Positions 475 to 4,289 of a DNA stretch of 64,000 nucleotides are shown here, one piece after another. The notes under the pieces were generated by a model. The model was given only the letters and a program-made list of their open reading frames with translations, ran no database searches and had not been told where the DNA came from. The translations under genes and the position numbers were made by a program. The DNA lies in NCBI RefSeq assembly GCF_050920415.1, contig NZ_CP169310.1; one strand, 5' to 3'. This DNA comes from Escherichia coli (lineage in GTDB: Bacteria; Pseudomonadota; Gammaproteobacteria; Enterobacterales; Enterobacteriaceae). Position 1 is the stretch's first letter; each line of letters starts with the position of its first letter.

Positions 475-512
475 GGGGTCCGCTTGGAAAACGGAAAATA
501 TCCCACGCTAAG
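475..512. repeat. Left 38-bp terminal inverted repeat of the Tn3-family transposon
   Basis: Exact reverse complement of 4252-4289; begins GGGG and ends TAAG as in Tn3-family repeats. Confidence 0.9.
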
Positions 513-520
513 ACTATTTT

Positions 521-1111
521 TTATACAGTAACAGTTTGCTGTTTCGCTCTAACTCTCAGAATTGTTTGCCGTGTGGTTCGGAATTCCCTGGCAATAGCAC
601 TTATACTTGCCCCAGACTTAATGCGTTCGAGTACCTTCTGTGTTTGTTCTTCATTTAATACCGGTGGGCGACCAAAACGTTTTCCTGCATCCCGTGCTCT
701 TGCTATCCCTGAATAAGTTCGTTCAAGTAAAAGGTCTCGTTCAAATTCAGCGACCGCTGAAATCACCTGCATTGTCATTTTTCCTGCCGGACTGGTCAGA
801 TCAACACCACCTAATGCTAGGCAATGCACCCTGATGCCAGATTCAGTCAGTTGCTCCACTGTTTTCCTGATATCCATTGCATTACGACCGAGGCGATCCA
901 GTTTTGTGACTATCAATACATCGCCACTTTCCAGACGATCAAGCAACCGGTTAAAACCTGGACGTTCGCTGGCTGCTACTGAGCCACTAATTTGTTCTTC
1001 GATTATTCGTTGTGGTCTGACGTTAAAACCCGCGCTTTCGATTTCCCGACGTTGATTTTCGGTCGTCTGTTCCAGTGTGGAGACCCGACAATAGGCAAAA
1101 ATTCGAGACAT
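521..1111 (-). CDS. tnpR: Serine recombinase, Tn3-family resolvase
   Basis: 196 aa; N-terminus [15 protein letters not shown] with the catalytic serine context of resolvase/invertase enzymes; C-terminal helix-turn-helix-like region; divergent from tnpA. Confidence 0.9.
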
Positions 1112-1149
1112 AGTGAGATCTTCTGTACGAAATGGGTGTACATATTATA

Positions 1150-1230
1150 ATGCATATCCGAAAGTGATTTCGCTGACTTTCGGACATATCTGTTTAACAA
1201 TGTCCGAAACCGGTCATTTTCGGTCACAAC
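1150..1230. promoter_or_regulatory. Putative res site and divergent tnpR/tnpA promoter region
   Basis: Intergenic region between divergent tnpR and tnpA containing two imperfect palindromes (TCCGAAAGT...ACTTTCGGA at 1157-1184 and TGTCCGAAA...TTTCGGTCA at 1201-1226) typical of resolvase binding subsites. Confidence 0.55.
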
Positions 1231-1271
1231 AAATCCATAACACATGAAAACTTTACACGAGGGAAGCATTC

Positions 1272-4256
1272 ATGCCACGGCGACAAATACTGAGTAGTGA
1301 AGAGCAAGCTCGCCTGCTGGTTATACCAGATGATGAAATTATTCTGACCAGAATGTGTTTTCTTAGTGATAAAGATATTGCTCTCATTAATAAGCACCGG
1401 CGTCCAGCTAATCGCCTGGGCTTTGCTGTATTACTCTGTTACCTACGTGGTCCTGGATTTGTACCGGACAAAAACAATATTCCCCACTGTGGTGTTGTAT
1501 CCAGAATTGCTTCAAGACTGAAGCTTCAGCCCGATTTATGGCATGAATATGCAGCCAGAGAGCAAACCCGCTGGGAGCATCTGGCTGAACTTTATCGCTA
1601 CCTGAAATTATCTCCATTCAGCCGAACACTGCAAAAAGACTGCATTCGGCATCTGCATTCCTATGCCATGCGAACAGATAAAGGATTTACTCTGGCGGAG
1701 GAAATGCTCAGTTGGCTACATAACAATAATGTTATTTTCCCGTCGGTTGATGTGATCGAGCGGACGCTTGCCGAAGCCGTCACGCTTGCTGACAGATCTG
1801 TTTTTACGGCAATTACTGCACAACTGGGAAAGCAGCATAGATCTGCACTCGACAGCCTGCTCATATCAGAAGGGGAACAACCTTCCCGACTTGCGTGGCT
1901 ACTTCAGCCTCCCGGTAAAATTAACGGTAAAAACGTGCTGCAACATATCGATCGACTTAATTCTATCACCGCGTTGGAATTACCTGATGGTATTGAGCTT
2001 TGCGTTCACCAGAACAAATTACTCAAACTGGCGCGTGAGGGCCGGAAAATGAGCAGCAGAGATCTGGCAAAATTCACCAATATCAGACGTTACGCTACGC
2101 TGGTTTGTGTCATTCAGGAAGCCAGAGCAACATTGACTGATGAGGTTATCGAGCTACACGAACGCATTATGGGCGGTCTGTTCAGCCAGGCAAAACGCAA
2201 ACAAGCCGAGAGGCTTCAGTTAACAGGTAAACTTATCCAGAGCAAGTTAAAACAATATGTTACTGTCGGTCAGGCGCTACTGCATGCCAGAAAGTCAGGT
2301 GAAGATCCCTGGGCCGCGATAGAAGATGTGATTCCCTGGCAGGAGTTCGTCAACAGCCTGGAAGAAACACAGTTTCTGTCCCGTAAAGATAATTTCGATC
2401 CTCTTCACCTGATCACCGAAAAATACAGCACGCTTCGAAAATACGCTCCACGAATGTTGTCAGCATTACACTTTGTAGCGACACCTGCGGCACAGCCGCT
2501 CAGCGATGCACTGGATACTATAAGGGAAATATACCGTAAGCAGCTTCGTAACGTTCCGCCTACAGCGCCAACAGCATTTATTCCTGAAAGCTGGCGAAAA
2601 CTGGTCTTAACGCCTTCTGGCATCAATCGAAAATACTATGAATTTTGTGTACTGAATGAACTCAAGGGGGCGTTACGTTCCGGAGATATTTGGGTAAAAG
2701 GGTCGCGTCGTTACAGAAATTTTGATGATTATCTCATCCCTGTCACTGAATTTGAGAAATCCCGACAAAATGACCAGTTACAACTGGCTGTGCAGACCGA
2801 TTGCCATGCATATCTTCAGGCCCGTATGACGCTTCTTGCATCTCGTCTGGAAGAAGTTAACGCAATGGCTCTTGCCGGTGAGCTGCCGGATGTTGATATT
2901 TCAGATAAAGGAGTGAAAATCACTCCGCTGGAGAACGGGGTTCCTTCCGGTGTATCTGCCTTTGCCAGTCTGGTTTATAACATGCTCCCCCATCCGAAAA
3001 TTACAGAAATACTGGAAGAAGTTGACAGTTGGACTGGTTTTACACGTCACTTCACGCATCTCAAAAATAATAACATCAGGCCAAAAGACGGAAGGCTGTT
3101 GCTGACCACAATTCTGGCTGACGGTATTAATCTGGGGCTGACAAAAATGGCGGAGTCCTGCCCCGGGGTAACAAAATCGTCCCTCGAAGGTATCCAGGCA
3201 TGGTACATCCGTGACGATACCTATTCTGCCGCCCTGGCAGAACTGGTAAACGCGCAGGGGAAACGTCCATTAGCAGCATTCTGGGGCGACGGGACAACAT
3301 CGTCATCAGACGGGCAGAACTTTCGGGTAGGCAGTCACGGGCGTTATGCTGGTCAGGTCAATCTTAAATATGGCCAGGAGCCGGGCGTACAAATTTATAC
3401 GCACATATCAGATCAATATAGCCCGTTCTACACCAAAGTGATTAGTCGGGTACGTGACTCAACCCACGTACTTGATGGCCTGTTGTATCATGAAAGTGAT
3501 CTGGAAATTACAGAACATTACACCGATACCGCAGGTTTCACAGAGCATGTTTTTGCACTAATGCATTTGCTGGGTTTCGCTTTTGCGCCGAGGATCAGGG
3601 ATCTTCATGATAAGCGACTGTTTATTCAAGGAAAGGCTGAGCGATATCCAGGGCTTCAGTCCGTCATATCAACAACCAGCCTGAATATCAAAGATATTGA
3701 AACGTACTGGGATGAGGTATTACGCCTGGCAGCTTCGATTAAACAGGGGGCAGTCACTGCATCGCTGATGATGAAAAAGTTAGCCAGTTACCCCAAACAG
3801 AATGGACTGGCCAAAGCGCTGAGAGAAATAGGTCTAATCGAACGGACACTGTTTATGCTGGACTGGTTTCGTGATCCAGGTTTGCGACGACGTGTACAAG
3901 CTGGGCTGAATAAAGGAGAAGCCCGTAATGCTCTTGCGCGAGCGGTTTTTATGCATCGGCTGGGTGAAATCAGGGACAGGGGGCTGGAGAATCAGAGTTA
4001 CCGGGCCAGTGGGCTGACGTTACTGACGGCGGCAATCGCGTTATGGAACACGGTATACATAGAAAGAGCCATTGAGTCCCTGAAACGAAAAAAGCTCCTG
4101 ATTAATGACCAACTGCTCTCTCACCTTTCGCCGTTGAGCTGGGAGCATATCAATCTTAATGGGGATTATGTCTGGCGTAATAATCTTAAACTGGGTACAG
4201 GGAAGTACCGACCATTACGCAGTGTCGATATCGAATCGTACAAAAAACAGTCTTAG
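1272..4256 (+). CDS. tnpA: Tn3-family DDE transposase
   Basis: 994 aa, the size and layout of Tn3-family TnpA; ends inside the right terminal repeat. Confidence 0.9.
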   Translation: MPRRQILSSEEQARLLVIPDDEIILTRMCFLSDKDIALINKHRRPANRLGFAVLLCYLRGPGFVPDKNNIPHCGVVSRIASRLKLQPDLWHEYAAREQTRWEHLAELYRYLKLSPFSRTLQKDCIRHLHSYAMRTDKGFTLAEEMLSWLHNNNVIFPSVDVIERTLAEAVTLADRSVFTAITAQLGKQHRSALDSLLISEGEQPSRLAWLLQPPGKINGKNVLQHIDRLNSITALELPDGIELCVHQNKLLKLAREGRKMSSRDLAKFTNIRRYATLVCVIQEARATLTDEVIELHERIMGGLFSQAKRKQAERLQLTGKLIQSKLKQYVTVGQALLHARKSGEDPWAAIEDVIPWQEFVNSLEETQFLSRKDNFDPLHLITEKYSTLRKYAPRMLSALHFVATPAAQPLSDALDTIREIYRKQLRNVPPTAPTAFIPESWRKLVLTPSGINRKYYEFCVLNELKGALRSGDIWVKGSRRYRNFDDYLIPVTEFEKSRQNDQLQLAVQTDCHAYLQARMTLLASRLEEVNAMALAGELPDVDISDKGVKITPLENGVPSGVSAFASLVYNMLPHPKITEILEEVDSWTGFTRHFTHLKNNNIRPKDGRLLLTTILADGINLGLTKMAESCPGVTKSSLEGIQAWYIRDDTYSAALAELVNAQGKRPLAAFWGDGTTSSSDGQNFRVGSHGRYAGQVNLKYGQEPGVQIYTHISDQYSPFYTKVISRVRDSTHVLDGLLYHESDLEITEHYTDTAGFTEHVFALMHLLGFAFAPRIRDLHDKRLFIQGKAERYPGLQSVISTTSLNIKDIETYWDEVLRLAASIKQGAVTASLMMKKLASYPKQNGLAKALREIGLIERTLFMLDWFRDPGLRRRVQAGLNKGEARNALARAVFMHRLGEIRDRGLENQSYRASGLTLLTAAIALWNTVYIERAIESLKRKKLLINDQLLSHLSPLSWEHINLNGDYVWRNNLKLGTGKYRPLRSVDIESYKKQS

Positions 4257-4289
4257 CGTGGGATATTTTCCGTTTTCCAAGCGGACCCC
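4252..4289. repeat. Right 38-bp terminal inverted repeat of the Tn3-family transposon
   Basis: Exact reverse complement of 475-512. Confidence 0.9.

Follow-up and report, generated by a model that had tools for sequence, protein, structure and literature searches.

Several described systems are useful for comparison with this locus. In Tn3 and gamma-delta, tnpR and tnpA are divergent and the res region lies between them. Tn4430 has a tyrosine recombinase, TnpI, in place of a serine resolvase. ISSba14, annotated by RefSeq in Shewanella baltica plasmids, carries only tnpR and tnpA. A Tn3-family element, Tn1331delta::IS26 in Klebsiella plasmids, abuts deletions; losses of 171 bp and 1,259 bp of neighbouring DNA took away its duplications, neighbouring genes were truncated, and the deletions were read as the outcome of intramolecular 'cis' transposition (He et al. 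2016, PMC5142620). The locus described here resembles Tn1331delta::IS26. However, the parent plasmids were available in that study, whereas the intermediate is reconstructed here from a relative. The loss of a duplication next to a transposon is an ordinary and already known phenomenon, and the locus reveals no new mechanism.

The window is a stretch of 64,000 nucleotides of Escherichia coli DNA, contained in plasmid pCFSAN004180G (NZ_CP012500.1; 225,292 bp), to which all record coordinates below refer. Positions 475–4289 on the plus strand hold a complete Tn3-family transposon of 3815 bp, with tnpR, a res-like region and tnpA as its only contents. Judged from its sequence, it is an intact and apparently functional transposon. 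Its terminal inverted repeats, GGGGTCCGCTTGGAAAACGGAAAATATCCCACGCTAAG, lie at 475–512 (IRL, plus strand) and 4252–4289 (IRR, minus strand) and match at 38 of 38 positions, and no such pair appeared in 100 shuffles. The repeat can be followed over 53 nt at 96%. Repeats of about 38 bp that start with GGGG and end with TAAG are typical of the Tn3 family, and the element has exactly such ends. Like Tn3 and Tn1000 (gamma-delta), it combines these repeats with divergent tnpR and tnpA around a putative res region, a serine resolvase and a 5-bp target duplication. Unlike Tn3, whose passenger is bla, it has no passenger gene. ISSba14 matches it end to end over 3815 bp with 83.5% DNA identity, that is, a divergence of about 16%. 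RefSeq names the 475–4289 copy just 'Tn3 family transposase', a label not specific to ISSba14, and no published name was found in the literature searched (ISSba14, the repeat sequence, and pSFO157 with Tn3).

The tnpR gene (521–1111, minus strand) encodes a full-length serine recombinase (resolvase) of 196 aa, which RefSeq calls a "recombinase family protein". Its N-terminal YxRVST catalytic motif aligns with the chains of resolvases and invertases, and the matches with the gamma-delta and Tn3 resolvases and the Hin and Gin invertases have E values from 1e-24 to 1e-29. The scores against the gamma-delta and Tn3 chains are only moderate, about 88–91 bits. The tnpA gene (1272–4256, plus strand) encodes a Tn3-family DDE transposase of 994 aa, a size usual for the family (about 1000 aa), and its stop codon falls within the right repeat. 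TnpA scores 1193 bits on the NF033527 profile (cutoff 500), which it covers entirely. It is also homologous over its full length (residues 22–984) to the Tn4430 transposase structures 7QD4 and 7QD8, with 736 bits. The 160-bp region between the two genes (1112–1271) contains TGTCCGAAA-type half-sites repeated at 1154–1187 and 1201–1226. It is a putative res site on the grounds of its location and the Tn3/gamma-delta layout. By analogy with the Tn3 family, the element would move by replicative transposition through a cointegrate resolved by TnpR, usually with a 5-bp duplication.

The 5 bp just outside the two ends differ, ATCTT (470–474) on the left and ATATA (4290–4294) on the right. An earlier note had described a minimal Tn3-family transposon with perfect repeats and unequal flanks, and had ascribed the missing duplication to a rearrangement after insertion; both points were borne out. 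Copies at least 97.7% identical to the element were collected from 15 independent insertion contexts elsewhere. Perfect 5-bp duplications were found at 9 of them. Therefore, the ends were read correctly, the element normally duplicates 5 bp, and the 475–4289 copy was rearranged after its insertion. The other six contexts have no duplication, and all six are on mosaic plasmids. Flanks of 5–7 bp seemingly shared in H54, H55 and H58 were discarded as BLAST extension artefacts. A match of pECOED to 474–4871, which seemed to share the right junction, proved to be separate pieces joined together, and the true flanks there are TTTAT and AGTAA. Three plasmids that were sequenced separately (CP012500.1, CP012499.1 and CP042297.1) have the same junctions at the present copy, which are thus not an assembly artefact. 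The sequence of the element is 100% identical in CP012499.1 and 99.9% identical in CP042297.1.

On the left, the transposon abuts the remnant of an IS630-family insertion sequence (1–474, minus strand, beginning 40 bp before the window). The remnant is the 3' 514 bp of the IS (positions 639–1152). The break is at internal position 639 and not at an IS end, and the first 638 bp are missing together with the transposase N-terminus of about 179 residues. It is 99.6% identical to the intact IS630 copy at record 22433–22951, which has the inverted orientation. Its translation fits positions 150–298 of the 299 positions of the IS630 transposase profile NF033545, with 136 bits (cutoff 100) over the C-terminal half only, and RefSeq labels it a pseudogene without an N-terminus. 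The flank ATCTT is native IS630 sequence, which continues in the intact copy as CGTAAAAC. The intact copies at record 21795–22946 and at about 198.5–199.65 kb have TA on both sides. The transposase type and the TA beside the intact copies place the left-flank element in the IS630 family, whose members have short terminal repeats flanked by a duplicated TA. CTAG/TA is the usual target of IS630, and the left copy is located at such a site. The island of the serine protease (SPATE) left of the transposon has IS630 copies at its boundaries, inverted and with their outer ends facing outward. The boundaries of this protease island are thus IS630 copies, not the Tn3-family element.

On the right, the transposon truncates a small ORF (4253–4543, minus strand), whose intact 137-aa counterpart is present in NZ_CP012498.1. 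From 4543 to 4290 it retains about 84 native N-terminal codons, to which 12 codons from the right repeat of the transposon are fused, and about 53 C-terminal residues of the hypothetical protein are lost. The intact protein matched no significant Pfam family. NZ_CP012498.1, a relative free of the transposon, keeps the empty site TTGATTCAACG ATATA GGATTTTC in the uninterrupted gene, where ATATA is preceded by TTCAACG. The 5-bp flank is therefore native to the disrupted gene. The earlier note had taken the ORFs at both ends for gene fragments and had proposed to look for the empty site in a related IncF plasmid; the fragments are those of the IS630 transposase and the 137-aa protein, and the search gave the right-hand site. 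The analysis accounts for two pseudogenes.

The surrounding backbone was compared with the same relative. Positions 4083–5574 of locus L007 correspond to record 20303–21794 (99.8%), and L007 6001–6572 corresponds to record 32394–32976. A block of 10.6 kb, consisting of IS630, the island, the truncated IS630 and the transposon, stands in for only 426 bp of the NZ_CP012498.1 backbone, and both flanks are oriented as in the backbone without the transposon. Window positions 4290–4872 are backbone in NZ_CP012498.1. In the transposon-free plasmid pRHB35-C09_2, the AT-rich DNA at 4873–12000 joins repA without a break (99.5%), and so it was not imported by the transposon. The suggestion that the rearrangement had brought in the adjacent island is thus not upheld for the right-hand DNA. 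Nor is it supported for the left-hand protease island, which is bounded by IS630 and whose far end lies, in the ancestral-type backbone, just 426 bp away from the right junction of the transposon. The small distance makes a small local deletion a better fit than import. The plasmid combines IncFIA/FIB with an IncFII repA; it is a multi-replicon mosaic with many IS fragments. In a BLAST search of the whole 225,292 bp, assembled from the window and loci L003–L006, there was a single copy of the transposon, and the second copy with reciprocal flanks that the earlier note had suggested looking for was not found.

The missing duplication is probably best explained by the deletion, after insertion, of about 1.07 kb next to the transposon. 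The ancestor would have had the order backbone A, TA, IS630 copy, SPATE island, inverted IS630 copy, TA, relic, backbone and ORF. A solo Tn3-type repeat relic and 386 bp of backbone between the TA and the small ORF would have made up the missing 426 bp, and the right-hand IS630 copy would have been complete, with its left end adjoining TAGTCTTAACGTGG. The transposon may have inserted first at ATCTT of this IS630 copy or at ATATA of the ORF. If the ORF was hit first and the deletion then ran leftward, the junction k-mer TTCAACGATATAGGGGTCCGCTTGG is predicted on the same backbone; if IS630 was hit first and the deletion then ran rightward, AGCGGACCCCATCTTCGTAAAACAC is predicted there. The transposon would then have attacked the other site on the same molecule, as in the deletion ('cis') outcome of intramolecular replicative transposition. 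An equivalent route is that resolvase, or homologous recombination, collapsed two direct copies lying close together. Either route would remove 638 bp of IS630 along with the TA and 426 bp of backbone, and the single transposon copy left behind would have an old flank on one side and a new one on the other. The single copy and the absence of the 426 bp relative to NZ_CP012498.1 are consistent with such a deletion, the 638 bp of IS630 being a presumed part of the ancestor.

The predicted ancestral junctions (ORF-left with ATATA and IRL; IRR with ATCTT and the rest of IS630) were absent from 5,426 complete E. coli genomes searched with hybrid queries, and exact 25-mers of both gave no match in metagenome contigs and GTDB genome contigs. 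A complete right-hand IS630 abutting the repeat relic was not found in PLSDB with queries of the IS630 end, TA and relic in both orientations; the Klebsiella matches to the IS630/relic queries were chance 5-bp extensions. A reciprocal product, which would count against a local deletion, would have ...TTCAACGATATA to the left of a transposon copy and ATCTTCGTAAAAC... to its right, and no reciprocal junction was present in any collection searched. Tn3-family target immunity should disfavour an attack on the transposon's own replicon, and this counts against the adjacent deletion.

Recombination between copies carried by two replicons can lead to the same end state as well. Import of the island by two-copy recombination or an unresolved cointegrate is a less probable explanation, though one to be taken seriously. 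The donor would have been IS630-island-IS630 carrying the transposon with a duplicated ATCTT. The transposon may have moved replicatively into ATATA of the recipient's small ORF and fused the replicons, or both plasmids may already have had a copy, with recombination at res or through RecA. Another crossover, between IS630 copies, would then have removed what was left of the donor together with the first transposon copy and the 426 bp. Import yields exactly the flanks seen; a multi-replicon mosaic rich in IS fragments is expected after replicon fusions, and the six contexts without a duplication are in line with it. However, it requires the coincidence that an IS630 was already at CTAG just 426 bp from the transposon target. 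No donor or reciprocal junction was found in the collections searched and no second copy in the plasmid, and the SPATE/resolvase-fragment/IS630 junction is confined to this plasmid lineage, with 4 records in total. That the transposon was the vehicle of replicon fusion, delivering the SPATE virulence island through a cointegrate later trimmed by IS630-IS630 recombination, is rather unlikely. If it were true, the high share of duplication-less contexts (6 of 15) would point to weak target immunity of the ISSba14-like element and to its repeatedly driving the mosaicism of virulence plasmids. Among the rearrangements first put forward, deletion or two-copy recombination stands, and inversion is unlikely. 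Inversion by the transposon, which results when intramolecular transposition takes the 'trans' course, would likewise part the two duplication copies and is known for replicative elements (PMC5142620). However, two inverted copies should then bracket the inverted segment, and the single copy and the retained backbone orientation of both flanks make it very improbable. A history with no rearrangement at all, in which the junction is a reading or assembly error, or the transposon entered an existing IS630/ORF junction and its duplication mutated later, could appeal to the likeness of ATCTT and ATATA at 3 of 5 positions. It is already refuted, with next to no chance left to it, by the nine perfect duplications that confirm the repeat ends, by the three concordant assemblies and by each 5-mer continuing natively from its own flank.

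With the adjacent deletion as the favoured reading, the analysis puts the events in a mosaic virulence plasmid of STEC/ETEC type in order and dates them. The missing duplication is a routine scar of plasmid evolution and has little significance beyond annotation. The unnamed ISSba14-like transposon has been recently active in Escherichia plasmids, as its nine fresh duplications indicate, and is often located at rearrangement breakpoints. The plasmid pRHB35-C09_3 (CP057156.1) was considered as a pre-transposon state. Its IS66 right flank is rearranged, and it is therefore a derivative and not an ancestor. It shares with p2RM9088 a common IS66 insertion in the truncated IS630 copy.

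The transposon at window 475–4289 is bounded by perfect 38-bp terminal inverted repeats (GGGGTCCGCTTGGAAAACGGAAAATATCCCACGCTAAG; 475–512 and 4252–4289), and such a repeat pair appeared in none of 100 shuffles. Between the serine recombinase gene (196 aa, 521–1111, minus strand) and the transposase gene (994 aa, 1272–4256), whose stop codon lies inside the right repeat, are 160 bp of intergenic DNA in which TGTCCGAAA-type half-sites are repeated. Against NCBIfam NF033527 'Tn3 family transposase', for which the cutoff is 500, the transposase scored 1193 bits; its score against the Tn4430 transposase, whose structure is solved, was 736 bits. 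The recombinase has matches to gamma-delta and Tn3 resolvases as well as to Hin/Gin invertases. No passenger gene is present between the two repeats. Therefore, the earlier note correctly described a minimal Tn3-family transposon, and its perfect inverted repeats were recovered as well. The nearest named relative is ISSba14 from Shewanella baltica plasmids, with 83.5% DNA identity from end to end. With its repeats, transposase, resolvase and, in other copies, a 5-bp target-site duplication, the element is an ordinary member of the family.

The 5-mers outside the two ends are indeed different, ATCTT at 470–474 and ATATA at 4290–4294. Fifteen independent contexts of the same element (97.7–99.9% identical) were retrieved. 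Perfect 5-bp duplications were found in nine of them (TATAT, CAAAA, TTAAG, TTCCA, TATAC, CTATA, AAGAT, ATGCA and ATCAA). Therefore, the ends of the element are correctly placed and a 5-bp duplication is normal for it. The duplication was absent from the other six contexts, all on mosaic plasmids; copies without duplication are common. A copy without duplication in NZ_AP027900.1 (L010) lies within a K88-like fae fimbrial operon of broken gene order, in which faeF and a hypothetical gene come before the transposon and an IS3, and a fimbrial protein gene and faeD after them. This suggests a further transposon-associated rearrangement. The Escherichia marmotae plasmid CP099346.1 (locus L013) carries a complete copy flanked by a duplication and an extra solo right-repeat-like match about 560 bp to its left (L013 ~1900–1939).

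The window is identical to positions 28105–92104 of NZ_CP012500.1, the 225,292-bp plasmid pCFSAN004180G of E. coli 09-00049 with IncFIA/FIB and IncFII repA replicons, and NZ_CP012499.1 is also identical across the first 9 kb. The same ATCTT/ATATA junctions recur in p2RM9088 (CP042297.1), a third plasmid whose sequencing was independent, which rules out misassembly. A search with Rfam identified regulatory RNAs standard for IncF plasmids in the window, namely CopA, two sok copies, FinP with the traJ 5' UTR, and antisense RNAs to traI, traG and pHK01_099 (9322–9410, 10217–10374, 12190–12372, 16815–16891, 27604–27689, 47966–48075 and 56250–56426).

Window 1–474 corresponds, inverted and at 99.6% identity, to the 3' part of an IS630-family element that is intact at 21795–22946 of pCFSAN004180G and has TA on both sides. 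The flanking copy is broken at IS position 639 and has lost 638 bp, including the transposase N-terminus. In the intact element, ATCTT is followed by CGTAAAAC. On the right, 4290–4872 aligns at 97% identity with part of the transposon-free plasmid pCFSAN004178P_02 (NZ_CP012498.1, locus L007). This flank alignment, proposed in the earlier note, gave an uninterrupted right-hand site, TTGATTCAACG-ATATA-GGATTTTC, within an unbroken 137-aa hypothetical gene. Since ATCTT is read through in the intact IS630 and ATATA in the unbroken gene, each 5-mer is native to its own, unrelated context. The small ORFs abutting the transposon are true gene fragments as suspected, a cut IS630 transposase on the left and the cut 137-aa gene on the right. 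Two related plasmids carry an IS66-family insertion within the truncated IS630 copy, 139 bp away from the transposon position (L008 5344–8115 in p2RM9088; L016 10149–12920 in pRHB35-C09_3). The transposon is missing from pRHB35-C09_3, and the DNA on the right side of its IS66 has been rearranged.

L007 was aligned to the whole of pCFSAN004180G. L007 4083–5574 matched 20303–21794 (99.8%), 6001–6572 matched 32394–32976 (97%), and 8674–10128 matched 32977–34429 (96%). Therefore, a 10.6-kb block stands in for just 426 bp of L007 (5575–6000). It consists of the intact IS630, an AraC-like gene fragment, a hypothetical gene, an S6/SPATE protease gene, a resolvase fragment, the truncated inverted IS630 and the transposon. 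A CTAG/TA site (L007 5572–5575), the usual preferred target of IS630 elements, is occupied by the left IS630 copy. L007 5575–5614 is a solo Tn3-type repeat relic (GTCTTAACGTGGTTTATTTTCCGAATTCCAAGCGGCTCCC) sharing 31 of 38 positions with the transposon's repeat; the terminal ~135 bp of sequence that finish with this relic recur in about 846 plasmids, and in pCFSAN004180G the IS630 copy lies exactly at its inner edge.

The missing duplication reflects a rearrangement after insertion, most likely a small adjacent deletion. The correctly placed ends and the flanks from unrelated contexts bear out the later rearrangement proposed in the earlier note. In the simplest history, an IS630-island-IS630 unit would have entered the TA of the CTAG site, and the Tn3-family element would then have inserted into ATCTT of the right-hand IS630 copy or ATATA of the small gene. 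A transposon-associated deletion of about 1.07 kb between both sites, made up of 638 bp of IS630, the TA and 426 bp of backbone, would have followed. It could have been the 'cis' outcome of an intramolecular replicative transposition, or resolvase or homologous recombination could have collapsed two close direct copies. Such a rearrangement is routine and not novel. For another Tn3-family element with parent plasmids in hand, deletions of 171 bp and 1,259 bp erased the duplications (He et al. 2016, PMC5142620).

The suggested search for a second copy showed that the whole plasmid holds a single one, which argues against both a transposon-mediated inversion, also raised in the earlier note, and a reciprocal copy still retained in the plasmid. 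A route through two replicons, by cointegrate formation or transposon-transposon recombination and a subsequent IS630-IS630 crossover, is possible but less likely because an IS630 would have to be already present 426 bp from the transposon's target. Hybrid queries for both possible ancestral or reciprocal junctions had no match in 5,426 complete E. coli genomes, and their exact 25-mers had none in metagenome and GTDB genome collections. A complete right-hand IS630 copy beside the repeat relic was found in no plasmid searched.

The idea that the rearrangement brought in the adjacent island was not supported. The protease island on the left has IS630 copies at its bounds. In the transposon-free plasmid pRHB35-C09_2 (L019), the AT-rich block on the right (~29–40% GC over 4500–7500) is joined to repA in the same way, at 99.5% identity; 4290–4872 is backbone in L007; and the joint of these two pieces, 4872|4873, is a breakpoint of its own that lies 583 bp from the transposon and 4 bp past a miniature element (MITE). 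Given these three observations, the right-hand DNA was not imported by the transposon. The very AT-rich part at 6000–7500 (29–33% GC) contains hypothetical ORFs along with a 'putative adhesin' gene; it sits between the transposon region and repA and is kept beside repA in transposon-free plasmids. At the breakpoint, transposon-free L007, L016 and L019 read ...GATGGAGCTGTA before TTTCTTTTAT, and 2.1 kb of L007 (6573–8673) is absent from the window.

The miniature element (4611–4868, 258 bp) has Tn3-family-like 38-bp inverted repeats (GGGGTCAGTTTGGATAT...), equal to the transposon's repeat at 26–28 of 38 positions. In the window its flanks are TATAT and TACCT, so a duplication is missing here too, and it is also missing in NZ_CP012498.1. 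More than 2,300 PLSDB plasmids carry the miniature element. Of its 1,670 places in complete E. coli genomes, 1,649 lie on plasmids, and no annotated feature lay under it among the matches listed. Elements of about 485 bp in many E. coli plasmids (matches H192–H220; e.g. NZ_CP159168.1 82915–83402) join the left end and part of tnpR to the right end of a ~94% identical transposon, and look like internally deleted mini-derivatives.
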